From Escherichia coli (GTDB lineage: Bacteria > Pseudomonadota > Gammaproteobacteria > Enterobacterales > Enterobacteriaceae), in NCBI RefSeq assembly GCF_041248615.1, contig NZ_CP158426.1: a stretch of 64,000 nt of DNA; one strand, 5' to 3'. Position 1 is the stretch's first letter. The number at the start of each line of letters is the position of its first letter. Positions 6,359 through 51,824 of the stretch are shown here, one piece after another. Position numbers and translations under genes: made by a program. The notes under the pieces are model-generated. The model was not told the DNA's origin, did no database searches, and saw only the letters and a program-made list of their open reading frames with translations.

Positions 6359-7222
6359 TTAGCTTGCGACGGCCATCCCCACGGTCATATGCAAACCATA
6401 GAATACGCCACGACCGATTAATTCCCCTGCCAGAAGCAGAATGAATGATACGGAAAGTAGCGGAACCGCAGGCTGATAACCTTTTAGCTGTGGTGCAATC
6501 CACAAGCACAGGGCAACAGCCAAAAGCACGATCCGCCAGGACATCAGCGCACCATAGTCCGGCACCAGCGCTGCGGCCTGCTGCACAGAACTATGAATAG
6601 TCGCCAGCTCTGCGCCCTGCATCACTGACATCACGCCACTCACTACCAGTGCCAGTACAGAAATGGCTGGCAGCAGACGCATCGCCCAGCCATCGACGCC
6701 AGCCAGACTCAGCAACAGGTAACCCAGTAACGGGCCGCCCATAAACATCGTCAGGAAGAAGCCCATCGGCGTCCAGATGCTGTACCAGGTCGGAACGGTA
6801 TCAATGCTGTTATACACACGCACCATCATCCAGACAAAGATGACGCCAAGAACCATCGTCACTATCAGCCACAGCGTACGCAATGCCGGTGACAGCTTTT
6901 TCAGCATTGCCAGCAACCAGCCGATGCCACCAACAGCAAAAAAGATCGAACCGCTGGCGATTTCGTTACTGAGTGCTGAAGCCCCTACCCGGTTGAGCGA
7001 GTTAAAGGCGCGCATCGGTGAACCAAGATGAAGCATAGAGGCGATAAAGCCAATGCCCATCAGCACCCATAAACCAAACATGCAGGCAATAACACGCTGC
7101 TGGGCTTCTGCTCGCAGGTCGCCTTTGAGCAGCGCCAAAGCCAGAACGATAAAACCACCCGCTACACATTGCCCGAAGACCGTGAAGATCATCAGCGGCC
7201 ATTCATGCCATCCACTTCCCAT
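6359..7222 (-). CDS. dmsC: DMSO reductase membrane anchor subunit
   Basis: 287 aa from MGSGWHEWPLMIF; polytopic; immediately downstream of dmsB. Confidence 0.9.
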   Translation of the reverse strand: MGSGWHEWPLMIFTVFGQCVAGGFIVLALALLKGDLRAEAQQRVIACMFGLWVLMGIGFIASMLHLGSPMRAFNSLNRVGASALSNEIASGSIFFAVGGIGWLLAMLKKLSPALRTLWLIVTMVLGVIFVWMMVRVYNSIDTVPTWYSIWTPMGFFLTMFMGGPLLGYLLLSLAGVDGWAMRLLPAISVLALVVSGVMSVMQGAELATIHSSVQQAAALVPDYGALMSWRIVLLAVALCLWIAPQLKGYQPAVPLLSVSFILLLAGELIGRGVFYGLHMTVGMAVAS

Positions 7223-10491: not shown

Positions 10492-10506
10492 AAAAGCGCC
10501 CGCAGG
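10492..10506. repeat. attL core (direct repeat AAAAGCGCCCGCAGG)
   Basis: identical 15-mer at 50468-50482; GGTACTTA at 10516-10523 mirrors TAAGTACC at 50456-50463. Confidence 0.55.
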
Positions 10507-10592: not shown

Positions 10593-11588
10593 TTACTGGT
10601 CGATGGACAGTTTATGGACACTTTCAGCCAGCGGATTAAAGCTGATCGCATCCTGTAAAAAGTCCGGTGAAAAATGCGCATACGTCATCGTTTGCTGAAT
10701 CGTGGCGTGACCCAGGATCCTCTGCAACGTGACGATGTTCCCGCCGTTCATCATGAAATGCGTGGCGAACGTGTGCCGCATGACATGCGTGGCCTGCCCT
10801 TTGGGTAAGTCGGGCTTCACCTCCTGAAGGATCTCCCTGAAACTGAGATAATCAACCTGATATAACAGGCCGGTCCGGCGGGTTTTAATTAACGGCACAA
10901 CGGAATCAGCTACAGGAACCGAGCGCGATTTCCCGTTCTTTGTGTTAAAGAACGTCACCCTGTTACCCACGATGTGTTCCCCGCGAAGCGTTGACGCCTC
11001 TTTCCATCTGGCCCCGGTCGAAAGGCACAGAATGGCAATGCGTCGTGCATCACCCTCAAGCCGTTTCAGAAGGCGATCAATCTCGTCATCTGAAAGAAAG
11101 GCCATTTCTGTATTCTGAACCTTGAGTTTACGTATTCCGCGCACAGGGTTTTCGTTATGATAAACCTCCGCGTCAATTAACAACGAAAACATCGCAGATA
11201 AGGCGCACAGGTCGCGATTGATACTGGACGGCATCAGTCCCGCCTGCAACTTATCCGAGCGATACTCAATCACGAATTTTCGTGTCATCTGGCTGGCGCG
11301 CGGGTCCCCCATTTCACGTATCACCTTCTCCAGTCTGGTTCTGTAGGTATCACCATATGCCTGATTACGACCATCAAGCATCCACCACACCTCAATCAGT
11401 TCTGATAACCGCCGTTGATCGGCGGGCCTTGCCTGCCACGGGTTATTGTGGAAATTCTGAAGAACGTATCTTTCGAATTCCTGCGCCTTTGATTTCAGGG
11501 TGAAAATCTTACGAATCCGCCTTCCTCCCGCCCCCTGAGGCCTTACATCAACCTGATAACGTCCGTCTTTGAGTTGCTTAATCGACAT
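10593..11588 (-). CDS. int: P2-type tyrosine integrase
   Basis: 331 aa from ATG with SD GGAGGTG; N-terminus MSIKQLKDGRYQVDVRP and C-terminal HxLRHxFAT...Y catalytic region; resemblance to P2 Int is from memory. Confidence 0.9.
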   Translation of the reverse strand: MSIKQLKDGRYQVDVRPQGAGGRRIRKIFTLKSKAQEFERYVLQNFHNNPWQARPADQRRLSELIEVWWMLDGRNQAYGDTYRTRLEKVIREMGDPRASQMTRKFVIEYRSDKLQAGLMPSSINRDLCALSAMFSLLIDAEVYHNENPVRGIRKLKVQNTEMAFLSDDEIDRLLKRLEGDARRIAILCLSTGARWKEASTLRGEHIVGNRVTFFNTKNGKSRSVPVADSVVPLIKTRRTGLLYQVDYLSFREILQEVKPDLPKGQATHVMRHTFATHFMMNGGNIVTLQRILGHATIQQTMTYAHFSPDFLQDAISFNPLAESVHKLSIDQ

Positions 11589-11657
11589 GATCAGCACCTC
11601 CGACGGATAAACCTGTTAACCCCTGCTTACTGAACGCCGCCCGTTCAATATACAGCG

Positions 11658-45302: not shown

Positions 45303-45366
45303 AAACAGCCATTCAACGCCGCTGCGGTGCATGAAACCATTACAGAACGCACCAGGAGAGAACACC

Positions 45367-46458
45367 ATGAAAGAGCTGTCAGTTACCGTTCCGTCACCGG
45401 ATATCGACATCACCATCAACAACAACACACTGGCAAACCTCACAGAGCGACTCATGACGCTGACCCTGACGGATAACCGGGCCTTTGAGGCAGACCGCGT
45501 CACCCTCACCCTTGACGATACGGACGGGCAGTTACAGTTGCCACCACGTGGCGCACGCCTGAGAGTGATGATTGGCTGGCGAGGAGAATCACTGGTTAAC
45601 AAGGGCACCTACGTCGTTGATGAGGTTGCGTGGGAAGGACCTCCAGATAAACTGATCATCACCGCCAGCAGCGCAGATTTTCGGGAAGAGTTCAACGTGA
45701 GGCGGGAGGTATCCTGGCACGACGTGACCGTAAAACAGGTTGTGTCAGCCATCGCTCACCGCTACGGCCTGAAGACACAGATAAGCGAAATCCTCATGGA
45801 TATCGAAATTGACCACGCTGACCAGACCGAAGAGAGCGATATATCCTTCCTGACCCGCATGGCTGAAATGCTGGGTGCGATTGCCACCGTAAAAAACGGC
45901 AGCCTGTTATTCATTCTGCCGGGTGGCGGAACCGGGCCGGACGGAAGAGCCCTGCCTTCGTTCGCCATTACCCGCAGCAGCGGCGACAGTCACCGCTTTC
46001 GCATTGCTGACCGTGATGCGTATACGGGGGTCCGGGCGCACTGGCTCGATCTGAAGTTCGGGCACAAGAAAAAAGTGAACGTGAAGCGACGCAGGGAAGC
46101 CGGGAAACAGAAACAGGAGAAGAGCAGCAGCCGGGAGGGTGATTACATGGAAGGCGCGGAAGGGAACGTCTACGTTCTGCGCAGGACTTACCAGAATGAA
46201 GAAACCGCACGACGTGCAGCTGCGGCAAAGTGGCAGGAGTTACAGCGGGGAGCAGCGGCATTCTCCATCACTCTGGCACGGGGTCGTGCCGACCTGTATC
46301 CCGAAATGCACGGCAGGGTAACAGGTTTTAAAAGCGAGGTGGACAATCAGGACTGGATTATTGCCAGGGTGGAGCACATCATAGATGAAAGCGGCTTCAC
46401 CACACAACTGGAGCTGGAAGCGAAAATCCCCGAATGGATAGCAGATTCAGGCGGATAA
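45367..46458 (+). CDS. tail protein D (P2 gpD-like)
   Basis: 363 aa from ATG 45367 with SD AGGAGAG; N-terminus MKELSVTVPSPD. Confidence 0.8.
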   Translation: MKELSVTVPSPDIDITINNNTLANLTERLMTLTLTDNRAFEADRVTLTLDDTDGQLQLPPRGARLRVMIGWRGESLVNKGTYVVDEVAWEGPPDKLIITASSADFREEFNVRREVSWHDVTVKQVVSAIAHRYGLKTQISEILMDIEIDHADQTEESDISFLTRMAEMLGAIATVKNGSLLFILPGGGTGPDGRALPSFAITRSSGDSHRFRIADRDAYTGVRAHWLDLKFGHKKKVNVKRRREAGKQKQEKSSSREGDYMEGAEGNVYVLRRTYQNEETARRAAAAKWQELQRGAAAFSITLARGRADLYPEMHGRVTGFKSEVDNQDWIIARVEHIIDESGFTTQLELEAKIPEWIADSGG

Positions 46459-46501
46459 AATTAAAATGAGCCATCTCCACTCAGCCAGATAAGGAGAAGC
46501 C

Positions 46502-46753
46502 ATGTTCCGTTGTCCCCTATGCGGTGCATCCGCACGTATCCGCACCAGTCGCAATGAAAATGATTCAGGCACAGTTCGCCTGAAGTACTACCAGTGCAAT
46601 AACCTCGAATGCGGGATCGGCTTTACCACACTGGAGGGTTTTAACAAATTCACATCAAAACGCGCCCCGTCGCCGCAGGGTACAGAGCGGATACCGTGGG
46701 AAGATTTTCCGGGATCTCACAGGGGGAATACTCAGATTAATCTTGATATTTAA
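46502..46753 (+). CDS. ogr: Ogr/Delta-family zinc-finger late activator
   Basis: 83 aa; MFRCPLCG...YYQCNNLEC four-Cys finger; SD AAGGAG. Confidence 0.85.
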   Translation: MFRCPLCGASARIRTSRNENDSGTVRLKYYQCNNLECGIGFTTLEGFNKFTSKRAPSPQGTERIPWEDFPGSHRGNTQINLDI

Positions 46754-46759
46754 GAACAA

Positions 46760-46897
46760 TAATCAGGTTGAGAGGACATCATAAGGCAAGTAGATTAACG
46801 GCAGATACTTTCCCGCAACCACGGGCAAGTATTTAATTATCCATGATGAAATATGACCTAAATTGTTTTTTGCCCGCCGGAAAGCGGGCATTTTTTT
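46760..46897 (+). repeat. repeat unit 1 (partial) ending in bidirectional intrinsic terminator
   Basis: shares GTTGAG...AGTAGATTA...CCATGAT...TTTTGCCCGCCGGAAAGCGGGCATTTTTTT with four downstream units. Confidence 0.55.
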
Positions 46898-47111
46898 ATT
46901 CTTTTGTGGTTATGGGGTCATCAGGAACCACGTGCAGATTATATTTTTGTTTTTTTGGCGTTCCTCCGGCAGCAACGAGTTCATCAATAAGACACTGACA
47001 CGCCTGAACATCCCGGGCATGTCTTAGTTTCACCTTTATTGATTTAACCTTATCCTCACCGGAGGAGAAATGCAGTTCAATCTCAATATCGTTTCTTCGG
47101 AACAATCTCAT
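46896..47111 (-). CDS. small protein of unknown function
   Basis: 71 aa (MRLFRRNDIEIELHF...); two decayed copies downstream; palindrome upstream. Confidence 0.5.
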   Translation of the reverse strand: MRLFRRNDIEIELHFSSGEDKVKSIKVKLRHARDVQACQCLIDELVAAGGTPKKQKYNLHVVPDDPITTKE

Positions 47112-47206
47112 ACGCCCCCTGAATATATCAGAAATACTAGTATCGAAAAATGAGAAAACAGTTAGACAGGAGAAACATATTAACACAAATCATTTATACC
47201 TATAGA

Positions 47207-47222
47207 TGAAATTATAATTTCA
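47207..47222. promoter_or_regulatory. perfect 16-bp palindrome TGAAATTATAATTTCA upstream of the small gene
   Basis: palindromic; related inverted repeats upstream of the two decayed copies. Confidence 0.35.
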
Positions 47223-47331
47223 TTCATGAATATGATAGATAACTATATTGTGAACAAAATGAAAAATGGCTAAATTAAAAATGGGCATGGAGGAATGCCC
47301 GGTTATCAATATAATGTGACGTAGATCATTG

Positions 47332-47562
47332 TTTTGCCCGCCGGAGAGCGGGCATTTTTTTTGCGCCTGCCATCGAGGCGCCTTCCCTGGCGCACACAAA
47401 GCAGCCCTGATTTTCCATGAAAACTTCAGGGTTGAGCTGCGGGCACAAAGTGAGTAGATTAGCTACGGGTACCTCCCCCTGACAACAGGAAGGGTGTCCA
47501 TTATCCATGATATACAAACGAAAAGTCTTGTTTTTTGCCCGCCGAAGCGCGGGCATTTTTTT
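47332..47562 (+). repeat. repeat unit 2, terminator-to-terminator (candidate structured sRNA)
   Basis: bounded by GCCCGCCGGAGAGCGGGC and GCCCGCCGAAGCGCGGGC hairpins with T-runs; internal conserved hairpin CCCTGATTTTCCATGAAAACTTCAGGG. Confidence 0.5.
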
Positions 47563-47688
47563 ATGCATCAGACAAGATACAGCCCACCCCAACTGACACC
47601 TGAAATATTGCCGCAACAAAAAGAAACAGTTAAATTACGCGCGGGTGCCTTTCGGCTGATGGCCGGAGGGAAAACCTGAAGGCCGGAT

Positions 47689-47922
47689 GTGGAAAGGCCC
47701 CGGAAAACATTTCTGTTTAACCGAGGCCCTAACCGCATTACCTTGACAAGTGAAAGGTTAGCGCCTCTCCGGAAAAGGAGCAAGTGCTATGTCGCAAAAA
47801 TCGCTTACGGCCATCACGTTCTGCGTGACGGCAATCCTCATCATCTGGATATTGCACGGTTCGCTGTGCGAAATACGGATGAGCTTCTGGGGAGCGGAGT
47901 TTGCGGCGTTCTTACAATGTAA
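47689..47922 (+). CDS. mok-like overlapping reading frame of hok locus 1
   Basis: 77-codon frame starting upstream of and overlapping hok, as in hok/mok/sok loci. Confidence 0.35.
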   Translation: MERPRKTFLFNRGPNRITLTSERLAPLRKRSKCYVAKIAYGHHVLRDGNPHHLDIARFAVRNTDELLGSGVCGVLTM

Positions 47923-47929
47923 GAAGTAA
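47789..47929 (+). CDS. hok: Hok/Gef-family type I toxin
   Basis: 46 aa MSQKSLTAITFCVTAILIIWILHGSLCEIRMSFWGAEFAAFLQCKK; SD AAGGAG; single TM plus conserved LCE and AAF motifs. Confidence 0.7.
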   Translation: MSQKSLTAITFCVTAILIIWILHGSLCEIRMSFWGAEFAAFLQCKK

Positions 47930-48015
47930 GGAAACCGCGACGGGGGAGCAATCCCCCGTCAATCGGTTGCCAGGGTAAGGTCGATAAGGCACCCTATCTC
48001 ACAGACATGAACAAC

Positions 48016-48050
48016 AAACCCGCAGCATAAAAACTGCGGGTTTTCTTTTT
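48016..48050 (+). terminator. intrinsic terminator of hok locus 1
   Basis: stem CCCGCAG/CTGCGGG followed by TTTTCTTTTT. Confidence 0.5.
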
Positions 48051-48181
48051 GGTGTCCTCACCGACTTGAAACAGTGATCAGACTATAAGACAAAGCCCGC
48101 AATGTTGCGGGCTTACTCTACCTCTCGAAAATGTGGTCACTGCGTGGACATACGCTGATACAAATCCTTTATATCAATAAA

Positions 48182-48280
48182 TTAAATCTTTGTTTTTTTC
48201 ATCAACAATGATTTAACCTTATCCTCACCGGAGGAGAAATGCAGTTCAATCTCAATATCGTTTCTGTGGAACAGCCTCAT
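48182..48280 (-). pseudogene. truncated copy of the 71-aa small gene
   Basis: first 24 codons near-identical to 46896-47111 copy, then diverges to early stop. Confidence 0.45.
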
Positions 48281-48501
48281 AAGACAACCTCCTGAATTCA
48301 TCAGAAACACAGTCAACTGAAAACCAGAAAGCAGACAAACAGTGGACACACATTAATACAAATCATTTATACCTATAGATGAAATTGCAGTTTCATCTAT
48401 AACATGACAGGTAACAATATTGTGAAAAAACTCAAAACTCGTTAGATTAAAGACGGACAGAGCAATGCTACTTTATCAATAACATGTAACCTGTACTTCC
48501 T

Positions 48502-48732
48502 TATTTTGCCCGCCGAAGCACGGGCATTTTTTTTGCGCCTGCCATCGAGGCGCCTTCCCTGGCGCACACAAAGCAGCCCTGATTTTCCATGAAAACTTCA
48601 GGGTTGAGCCAAAAGCACAAAGACAGTAGATTAACCACGGGTGCCTTCCACCTGACAACAGGAAGGGTGTCCAGTATCAATGACAGACAACTCACATTGC
48701 TGTTTTGCCCGCCGGAAAGCGGGCATTTTTTT
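48502..48732 (+). repeat. repeat unit 4, terminator-to-terminator
   Basis: same architecture and sequence family as unit 2. Confidence 0.5.
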
Positions 48733-48734
48733 AT

Positions 48735-48936
48735 TCTTTTGTGGTTATTGGGTCATCAGGAACAACATGCAGATTATGCTTTGATTTTTTTGGTGTTATT
48801 ACAGCAGCAACGAGTTTATTAATAAGACACTGACATGCCTGAACATCCCTGACATATCATAATTTCACTTTATTTTTTTAGCTTGTCCTTTCTGGAGCAG
48901 AAATATCTCAACATCGTTTCTGTGGAACAACCTCAT
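48735..48936 (-). pseudogene. degenerate copy of the 71-aa small gene
   Basis: nucleotide homology to 46896-47111 across its length but reading frame disrupted. Confidence 0.35.
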
Positions 48937-49151
48937 TTGCCCCTGAATGTATCATAAATATCAGCATCGGAAAACCAACAGCAATACAGAAGAAACATGT
49001 TAATGCAAATCACTTATACCTATAGATGAAATTACAGTTTTGTTCATAAATATGATAAGTAACTATATTGTGAATAAAATGAAAACTAGCTAAATTAAAC
49101 GTGGGCATGGTGGAATGCCTCGTAATCAATAATACATGATCCGTACTTCCT

Positions 49152-49380
49152 TGTTTTGCCCGCCGGAAAGCGGGCATTTTTTTGGCGGTTACCATCGCCT
49201 CACCTTCCTGGTTCACATGAAGCAACCCTGATTTTCCATGAAAACTTCAGGGTTGAGACAAAAGCACAAAGACAGTAGATTAACCACGGGTACCTTCCAC
49301 CTGACAACAGGAAGGCTGTCCAGTATCAATGACAGACAACTCACATTGCTGTTTTGCCCGCCGGAAAGCGGGCTTTTTTT
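49152..49380 (+). repeat. repeat unit 6, terminator-to-terminator
   Basis: same family; 5' hairpin region diverged, 3' region conserved. Confidence 0.5.
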
Positions 49381-49582
49381 GGCAGTTATCATAGCCGCAC
49401 CTTCCTGGCACATATGAAGCAACCCTGATTTTCCATGAAAACTTCAGGGTTGAGACAAAAGCACAAAAACAGTAGATTAACCACGGGTGCCTGCCACCTG
49501 ACAACAGGAAGGGGTGTCCATTATCCATGATATACAAACGAAAAGTCTTGTCTTTTGCCCGCCAAAGCGCGGGCATTTTTTT
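49351..49582 (+). repeat. repeat unit 7, terminator-to-terminator (shares a terminator with unit 6)
   Basis: same family; directly upstream of hok locus 2. Confidence 0.5.
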
Positions 49583-49793
49583 ATGCATCAGACAAGATAC
49601 AGCCCACCCCAACTGACACCTGAAATATTGCCGCAACAAAAAGAAACGGATGCCTTTCGGCTGATGGCCGGAGGGAAAACCTGAAGGCCGGATGTGGAAA
49701 GGCCCCGGAAAACATCTGTGTTTAACCGAGGCCTGACCCTTCCTACCGTGACAAGTGGAAGGTTAGCGCCTCTTTGTAAAAGGAGCAAGCGCT

Positions 49794-49934
49794 ATACCGC
49801 AAAAAACGATTATTGTTGGCATTTTATGCCTGACAATAACCCTGGTCATCTGGATGGTCCACGATTCGTTATGTGAATTCAGCTTTGATATCTGGGGAGC
49901 GCGTTTTGCGGCGTTCTTGCAGTGTAAACCGTAA
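49794..49934 (+). pseudogene. hok-like toxin gene copy 2 with ATA in place of ATG
   Basis: encodes IPQKTIIVGILCLTITLVIWMVHDSLCEFSFDIWGARFAAFLQCKP; no canonical in-frame start; mok-like frame 49694-49876 overlaps. Confidence 0.45.
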
Positions 49935-50084
49935 GAAACCGCAGCGGGGGAGAAATTCCCCGCTATCCGGTTGTTGGGGTGGGCCGATATGGCGCCCTTT
50001 CCCTGTAGAGACAAAACAAAAAACCAGATTTGCCCGCCATTGAGAGGGCTTTTTTGTCACCCTCACCAGTGAGGGCATCATCAT

Positions 50085-50312
50085 TCAGAGGCGCGTAAGC
50101 CACCCGGCGTTAACATCCTGCCTGTCAACCCTGGCCGCAGAGTCTGAACGGCAGGTACCGGAAGGAGTACCAAAAACATCCCTGACAAGTTCCGCCACCT
50201 TCCCGATATCATCAGGTGTCACATTCCTCACCTCGGCCGTGATCCGTGGCGTACCATCATCGTTAACAAGAGTGGCTTTAAAGCTGGTGCGAAGGGAAAA
50301 CAACATCAACAT
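50085..50312 (-). CDS. hypothetical 75-aa protein at prophage right end
   Basis: strong SD GGGAGGGG before ATG; no recognisable motif. Confidence 0.5.
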   Translation of the reverse strand: MLMLFSLRTSFKATLVNDDGTPRITAEVRNVTPDDIGKVAELVRDVFGTPSGTCRSDSAARVDRQDVNAGWLTRL

Positions 50313-50423
50313 CCCCTCCCTTTGGTTCGTTGCACTGACGGCACGACACCATCAGGAAAAAGAAAAGCCCACAACGTCAGTATTGTGGACTTTTTTCTTC
50401 AAAGATGGACATTATCTGGACAC

Positions 50424-50450
50424 ATGAAAATAAAATCCATTTATTTTCAT
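50424..50450. promoter_or_regulatory. perfect 11-bp-arm inverted repeat ATGAAAATAAA/TTTATTTTCAT next to attR
   Basis: perfect palindrome, 5-bp spacer, 17 bp from the att core. Confidence 0.35.
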
Positions 50451-50467
50451 ATAGTTAAGTACCATGC

Positions 50468-50482
50468 AAAAGCGCCCGCAGG
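50468..50482. repeat. attR core, overlapping the serS intrinsic terminator
   Basis: identical to 10492-10506; continues into GCGCTTTTT terminator 3' of serS. Confidence 0.55.
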
Positions 50483-50510
50483 CGCTTTTTAGATTCAGAA
50501 AAATTGGGTA

Positions 50511-51824
<1,314 letters not shown>

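Follow-up and report, generated by a model that had tools for sequence, protein, structure and literature searches.

Temperate phages of the P2 type carry non-essential lysogenic-conversion genes, or 'morons', of which old, tin and Z/fun are the familiar cases. Two further points of reference are needed here. The orphan family PHROG 14142 consists of proteins of ~128 amino acids (aa) encoded in P2-like prophages of Salmonella, Klebsiella, Citrobacter, Enterobacter and Yersinia, together with 57-aa short forms encoded in P4-like satellites. The right arm of the P2 phage attachment site (attP), as seen in the P2 remnant between cyaR and ogrK of Escherichia coli K-12, combines the attachment (att) core with an AT-rich palindrome and TGTGGAC-type repeats. 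Here we set beside these systems a small gene, orf71, from a 64,000-nucleotide (nt) stretch of E. coli DNA (contig NZ_CP158426.1), referred to throughout as the window. Judged from its sequence and position, orf71 is probably a true coding sequence, an accessory gene carried by a P2-like prophage, and a short form of PHROG 14142 lying in a recombining repeat array; we put the probability of this reading at about 0.6. The gene resembles the P2 morons in layout only, as a small accessory gene that is not part of the essential operons and runs opposite to the late gene next to it. It has no sequence relationship to them, and its position, in the interval between ogr and att, is different.

The intact 71-aa open reading frame (ORF) on the minus strand (46896..47111) that was the starting point of the original prediction is present in the sequence and in the RefSeq annotation, where its product is the hypothetical protein WP_001236182.1. 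The ATG is at 47111 and the TAA at 46898-46896, and the start context is AGGGGG-cgt-ATG, in which AGGGGG is a strong Shine-Dalgarno sequence. Its product is a hydrophilic protein without transmembrane segments. In a survey of 5426 complete E. coli genomes, orf71 was found in 30, at three integration sites, and in all 30 it is intact and annotated.

Orf71 matches PHROG 14142, a family of unknown function, with an hmmscan E-value of 4.9e-12, the match covering profile positions 72-127 of 128 only. The wider family of homologues emerged only from exhaustive phmmer and profile searches: a word-indexed protein search with the single Orf71 sequence returned near-identical E. coli entries only, and tblastn with Orf71 against phage and plasmid collections gave no match, even at E 10. 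The exhaustive phmmer search recovered the homologues P0009, P0010 and P0011, whose lengths between them are 128, 133 and 57 aa. A profile search returned 71 proteins from more than 10 genera of Enterobacterales (Salmonella, Citrobacter, Enterobacter, Klebsiella, Raoultella, Yersinia, Pectobacterium, Pantoea, Sodalis and others), all labelled 'hypothetical' and most of them ~128 aa long; the orf71 clusters P0001 and P0002 were found in it at E 1e-24 to 1e-25. The long-form protein P0009 matches PHROG 14142 from end to end (E 1.6e-67).

Alignment of the family reveals a variable N-terminal domain (N-domain, residues 1-71) and a well conserved C-terminal domain (C-domain, residues 72-128). The consensus of the latter is IMGLLNRNDVEIELNLCTRDDEPxTAKVKLRSLKDVEACERLIDKL, and the residues M72, L74, E83, L100, R101, C109 and L112 are invariant across the family. 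The start of orf71 coincides with the invariant Met72, and the in-frame reading upstream of it bears no resemblance to the N-domain. Thus, with only profile positions 72-127 matched and no N-domain encoded upstream, orf71 is a short form, like the members found in P4-like satellites. The C-domains of the ~128-aa proteins are ~44-55% identical to orf71 and retain the invariant residues, and their genes share its position: after ogr, convergent with ogr and before att. Unlike these long forms, orf71 lacks the 71-residue N-domain, lies 3.2 kilobases (kb) rather than ~100 base pairs (bp) from att, sits inside a repeat array, and carries a 14-residue C-terminal tail that is absent from its relatives. 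The tail arose by loss of the ancestral stop codon.

True short forms of 57 aa also occur in P4-like satellites (L011-L013). Like orf71, they (P0010, for example) consist of the C-domain alone, beginning at the same Met, and the DNA upstream of them has no coding capacity for an N-domain. They differ from orf71 in having only ~40% identity to it, no palindrome, and a convergent neighbour of 159 aa. Some database entries of '57 aa' are miscalled or 5'-truncated long forms; a 5'-truncated relative is found in locus L018, and P0059 (L019, 6743-7174) is really a 128-aa gene starting at GTG that was miscalled. Several long forms (among loci L007, L015, L016 and L021) have GAGG, GGGG or GGGA 5-6 nt 5' of the Met72 codon, and from this arrangement the conserved C-domain of long forms may also be produced by internal initiation at Met72.

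The family has a characteristic genomic position. At each locus examined, whether P2-like or P4-like, no other gene of the element lies between the family gene and the host flank; the family gene reads inward, and its usual convergent partner is ogr or a hok/sok cassette. In Klebsiella it follows yegQ-cyaR and att, and is convergent with ogr and gpD; in locus L009 it follows fabB and is again convergent with ogr. In Salmonella (at the raiA or dsbB site) and in E. coli (at the ytfP site) it is convergent with hok, beyond which are tail-fibre genes, and in P4-like satellites the short form comes after the alpha primase gene and a stretch rich in iterons, read here as crr-like. orf71 likewise lies between ogr and att and reads inward, in a prophage bounded by a 15-bp att core. 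The original prediction had allowed that the ORF might be a shadow ORF in repetitive DNA, without conservation in related elements. Instead, homologues conserved in position and sequence are found across Enterobacterales, and its description as a real gene of unknown function stands.

The prophage in question is P2-like and spans 10.5-50.5 kb of the window, to which the E. coli chromosome NZ_LT599825 is 100% identical. Its integrase gene is at 10593-11597 and gpD at 45331-46458; its final core gene is ogr (46502..46753, plus strand), which encodes the P2 late activator (Pfam Ogr_Delta, E 4.9e-14; RefSeq annotation) and is convergent with orf71. The attR core AAAAGCGCCCGCAGG (50468..50482) is part of the serS terminator, and an identical 15-mer forms attL at 10492-10506; the prophage is integrated in the serS transcription terminator. 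As the second copy of AAAAGCGCCCGCAGG is inside that terminator, the prophage includes all DNA from ogr to 50.47 kb, and the orf71 locus belongs to a 3.7-kb cargo between ogr and attR (46754-50470). The end of a closely related phage, including the orf71 locus, is found at two further chromosomal sites, beside copA (locus L002) and beside zapB (L003). With the same phage end at serS, copA and zapB, the orf71 locus evidently travels with the phage.

Within this cargo, orf71 (copy 1) is accompanied by two further copies, which the original prediction rightly described as decayed paralogues, one being truncated and the other frameshifted. Copy 2 (48182..48280, minus strand) has its ATG at 48280 and was correctly described as sharing the first ~24 codons before a premature stop: these 24 codons are those of orf71 except for R5H and two synonymous changes, and are followed by eight unrelated codons and a stop (SLLMKKTKI-stop). 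Similar fragments form clusters P0005 and P0006. Copy 3 is, as proposed, a degenerate full-length pseudogene on the minus strand, with ~88% DNA identity, deletions of 8 bp and 2 bp, and in-frame stops; its limits are 48731..48936, the start being at 48731 and not at 48735. Between copies 1 and 2 the shared coding part is 94% identical, with two synonymous substitutions and one altered codon, and the upstream intergenic region is 77% identical. Substitutions between copies 1 and 3 number 13, 7 and 14 at codon positions 1, 2 and 3, respectively, with no clear codon-position signal.

The copies are parts of a larger repeat structure. Seventeen direct-repeat families were found within 46400-50600, and the order of elements is ogr, S1, orf71 (minus strand), palindrome, R1, S2, hok/sok cassette 1, truncated orf71, palindrome, R2, S3, pseudo-orf71, degenerate palindrome, R3, S4, S5, decayed hok/sok cassette 2, orf75 (minus strand), arm palindrome and attR, where S and R denote small RNA (sRNA)-like units described below. 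The repeat families, the alignments and the strain variants show that what was duplicated is a composite unit of ~0.6-1.2 kb, comprising an S unit, orf71, the palindrome and an R unit, rather than the small gene alone, as had been supposed. Locus L002 has a single unit and no hok, L003 is without hok1 and the copy-2 segment, and the orf71 of L006 is intact and is of the copy-2 type at its 5' end and in the region upstream. These variants are the expected products of unequal homologous recombination between units. In the viral contig L006, an IS10-like end (1-100) breaks the array just past an R unit.

The palindrome reported upstream of orf71 as a perfect 16-bp repeat (TGAAATTATAATTTCA, 47207-47222) is present, and its full extent is 18 bp. 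In this form (ATGAAATTATAATTTCAT, 47206..47223) it lies 95 nt upstream of the orf71 ATG, has TATAAT on both strands at its centre, and ranks first among tight palindromes of the 64-kb window; it is a candidate protein-binding site between orf71 and the divergent unit R1. The related inverted repeats that had been noted upstream of both other copies are unequal. At copy 2 there is a near-perfect 28-bp palindrome (TATAGATGAAATTG/CAGTTTCATCTATA, 48374..48401, inverted repeat I9) with 13/14 positions paired, and at copy 3 only a degenerate remnant (ATGAAATTACAGTTTTGTTCAT, 49026..49047). A pattern for the extended palindrome matched at copies 1 and 2 only, with 0 matches expected from shuffles. The possibility that the palindrome is an operator of the prophage repressor was considered and rejected, as the immunity region has no additional copy of it.

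The same half-sites occur at the prophage end, where a palindrome of the attP arm, ATGAAAATAAA-ATCCA-TTTATTTTCAT (50424..50450), stands beside TGGACA repeats. A longer palindrome of the form ATGAAA(A)TAAA-N-TTTATTT(T)CAT, followed by GTCCACA/TGGACA repeats, is found both at the prophage attR and upstream of the long-form genes, at a distance from the latter of 70-100 nt. Counterparts are present in Klebsiella, in Salmonella, in L009, in L021 (~6897-6920) and in the K-12 P2 remnant between cyaR and ogrK (L025, 313-335). The palindrome and its repeats are conserved beside differing att cores, in the terminators of cyaR, serS, raiA and fabB, and this conserved arm element is presumably a protein-binding element of the attP arm. 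Since the K-12 remnant has the arm arrangement without a family gene, the arm palindrome belongs to the P2-type attP arm itself and is not gene-specific. The orf71 palindrome shares the outer half-sites ATGAAAT/ATTTCAT with the arm, and copy 2 keeps GTGTCCAC downstream of its palindrome, but the inner spacing at orf71 is 4 bp as against 10-13 bp in the arm, and no att core stands beside it. A common origin of the orf71 palindrome and the att arm is a lead suggested by these sequences, not a result.

The original prediction regarded the gene as autoregulated. In such a scheme, Orf71 would be a small DNA-binding dimer that uses the palindrome to repress its own promoter, and may also control the divergent R unit. 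The dyad symmetry has been kept in two diverged copies (18 bp and perfect in one, 28 bp with 13 of 14 positions paired in the other) despite an intergenic identity of 77%, the palindrome sits between two divergent promoter-like regions, and layouts that combine a regulator with a divergent sRNA are known, as in oxyR/oxyS and gcvA/gcvB. However, sequence, profile and fold searches with Orf71 detected no helix-turn-helix, ribbon-helix-helix, winged-helix or other DNA-binding domain or fold. Furthermore, the attP arm of the K-12 P2 remnant has the same half-sites and no such gene, and copy 3 and the P4-type relatives are without a comparable palindrome. Autoregulation is thus unsupported, and we consider it unlikely.

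A number of observations weigh against orf71 being a genuine accessory gene of the kind proposed above. It has no N-domain and is the most divergent member of the family (~44% identity), and may be a fragment that has survived. Among the 30 E. coli carriers identity is at least 98.6%, which places purifying selection on orf71 itself beyond measurement. Neither scanning nor reading of the sequence revealed a convincing sigma-70 -35 element for the gene. The structure models are weak, with a predicted local distance difference test (pLDDT) score of 76 for orf71 from a single sequence and of 59 for the long form with an alignment, and for this reason the lack of a DNA-binding fold is only weak negative evidence. 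Finally, the orf71 5' region has only marginal homology to the att arm: 5/300 shuffles reach the observed score in the case of copy 2, and for copy 1 the score is not significant.

Some of these points would be explained if orf71 were the non-functional C-terminal remnant of a once 128-aa gene, open by chance in decaying repetitive DNA. In addition to the missing N-domain and the uniformity of the carriers, two of the three copies are already dead, the gene is present in just 30 of the 5426 genomes, and the relative in L018 is 5'-truncated. Nevertheless, orf71 opens precisely at the invariant Met72, with a strong AGGGGG Shine-Dalgarno sequence in front of it, and it is intact in 30/30 carriers and at three integration sites. 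P4-like satellites independently carry true short forms, conservation within the family is concentrated in the C-domain, and copies 1 and 2 agree better in their coding part than in the flanks. On balance, decay to a remnant seems about as unlikely as autoregulation.

A still less probable explanation is that the family protein is a factor associated with the att site, whether a recombination accessory, a directionality protein or a regulator binding ATGAAAT...ATTTCAT, and that orf71 is a relocated copy of its gene. The family gene is always beside att in P2-like and P4-like elements, long-form genes have the arm palindrome a short way 5' of them, and its half-sites recur in the orf71 palindrome. 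Yet P2 itself and the K-12 remnant carry the arm palindrome and no such gene, the accessory factors of P2 are Cox and IHF (PMC3936717), orf71 is 3.2 kb from attR, and no DNA-binding fold was found. The weakest proposal is that orf71 acts in toxin-antitoxin or abortive-infection fashion and would be counteracted by the divergent R RNA or by the S RNAs; hok/sok cassettes are recurrent neighbours and an sRNA-like gene is divergent from each orf71 copy, but with Orf71 hydrophilic and free of transmembrane segments, no match in PADLOC, and complementarity of the cognate R and S units to orf71 mRNA (duplexfold) no better than that of shuffles, the features of a type I system are missing and the proposal is very improbable.

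The profile searches and structure prediction proposed with the original prediction have accordingly supplied a family, PHROG 14142, and neither a function nor a confident fold. Searches of Pfam, NCBIfam, PADLOC and PDB sequences, with single sequences and with the profile, gave no match for the family, and PADLOC-DB gave none for orf71, for orf75, for the long form P0009 or for the 159-aa protein encoded beside the P4-type short forms. HicB-N-like and AP2/integrase-N-like folds were considered from the order of secondary-structure elements and dropped, neither being among the fold-search matches. Literature searches with the sequences, the accession and the P2 ogr/att cargo found nothing relevant.

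The sRNA-like array around orf71 is a more unusual feature than the gene itself. It consists of eight plus-strand units with invariant -35/-10 hexamers (TTGAGA/TTGTGA-17-TAGATT/TAAATT) and a variable spacer. Five of these are S units. S1 (46766..46897; repeat families D2 and D6, terminator scan and fold) is in the ogr 3' region, with its terminator abutting the orf71 stop codon; S3 (48602..48732) likewise has a terminator that abuts the stop codon of copy 3. S2 (47430..47562) and S5 (49448..49582) were delimited by repeats, terminator scan and alignment, and S3 and S4 (49251..49381) by these and by folding. The three R units comprise R1 (47248..47362; alignment of copies, fold and terminator scan), which is divergent from orf71 and consists of TTGTGA-17-TAAATT, a 5' hairpin, UUAUCAAUA and a terminator, R2 (48420..48534; repeat family D10, alignment and terminator scan) and R3 (49068..49183; repeats, alignment, terminator scan and fold). 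S and R units have in common a conserved UAUC(A/C)AU stretch and the terminator GCCCGCCGGAAAGCGGGC-T7, of which there are nine copies in the interval. The sequence of the 5' stem-loop differs between S1 and S2-S5, with pairing retained.

In the Rfam search sok alone was matched, and the S and R units belong to no Rfam family. The S unit and orf71 were found in exactly the same 30 of the 5426 complete E. coli genomes, and a conserved 28-mer of the S unit had no match in 100,044 species genomes. Directly 5' of the -35 hexamer of S2-S5, and absent from S1, is a 27-nt inverted repeat, CCCTGATTTTC-CAT-GAAAACTTCAGGG (sites at 47391-47429, 48563-48601, 49212-49250 and 49409-49447), which could be an operator or a processing hairpin. 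The 3' parts of S3 (48679-48732) and S4 (49328-49381) contain CUCACAUUGCU, which we take to match 11 nt of the RyhB core exactly. A RyhB match in the Rfam search, spanning both the CUCACAUUGCU stretch and the terminator, is not significant (E 0.45).

Three other genes or cassettes complete the interval. The hok/sok cassette 1 (47631..48031, plus strand; Rfam sok, E 4.5e-8; Pfam HOK_GEF, 29 bits against a cut-off of 22) contains an intact hok coding sequence (47789-47929) and is convergent with the truncated copy 2. It is 89-92% identical to the cassettes that stand beside family genes in L015, L018 and L019, and such cassettes adjoin PHROG 14142 genes at Salmonella and E. coli prophage ends. 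Cassette 2 (49647..49961, plus strand; repeat family D3, 81%) is decayed, its hok start codon being ATA. The last gene before attR is orf75, a 75-aa ORF on the minus strand (50085-50312) that is unannotated in the source record; in L002 it is annotated as the 73-aa hypothetical protein WP_029490443.1. It moves along with the phage end, and had no Pfam, NCBIfam or PADLOC match and only a weak PHROG match (E 0.16). Paralogy of orf71 and orf75 was considered and found unconvincing, a single short BLASTP segment being its sole basis.

The history of the locus can be reconstructed as follows. In this E. coli prophage lineage the ogr-attR interval has grown to 3.7 kb by duplication of a ~0.6-kb unit and by acquisition of hok/sok cassettes, with unequal homologous recombination between units creating and deleting copies in different strains. 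The extra orf71 copies are casualties of this process, copy 2 having been cut at codon 24 between hok/sok cassette 1 and the rest of unit 2, and copy 3 having been frameshifted. Orf71 itself is likely to be a small soluble alpha/beta domain that acts via protein-protein contacts rather than by binding DNA. Our best guess is that it is a lysogen-expressed accessory protein, or moron, which probably takes part in phage-phage or phage-host interference. The 18-bp palindrome is probably bound by a dimeric factor controlling how active the divergent orf71 and R promoters are, and this factor is more likely to be one that also recognises ATGAAAT...ATTTCAT in the attP arm than to be Orf71.

A more far-reaching view is that the ogr-attR interval houses, as an island borne by the phage, as many as eight undescribed small-RNA genes (five S and three R units with diversified single-stranded regions), and that Orf71 and the PHROG 14142 C-domain are their dedicated regulator or partner acting via the ATGAAAT...ATTTCAT palindromes. 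We regard this as improbable. If it were true, the family would be a new att-proximal regulatory module common to P2-like phages and P4-like satellites.

For orf71 itself the outcome is modest and largely ordinary: it is a conserved hypothetical protein, and there is no pointer to a new mechanism. The locus does provide an example of how tandem duplication of a unit and recombination at a prophage end yield 'decayed paralogues'. A genomic address and a domain structure can now be given to the orphan family PHROG 14142, whose genes are widespread among the P2-like prophages and the P4-like satellites found in Salmonella, Klebsiella, Enterobacter, Yersinia and E. coli. The ogr-att interval in which it resides, together with hok/sok cassettes and sRNA-like units, is another cargo slot of P2-type phages.

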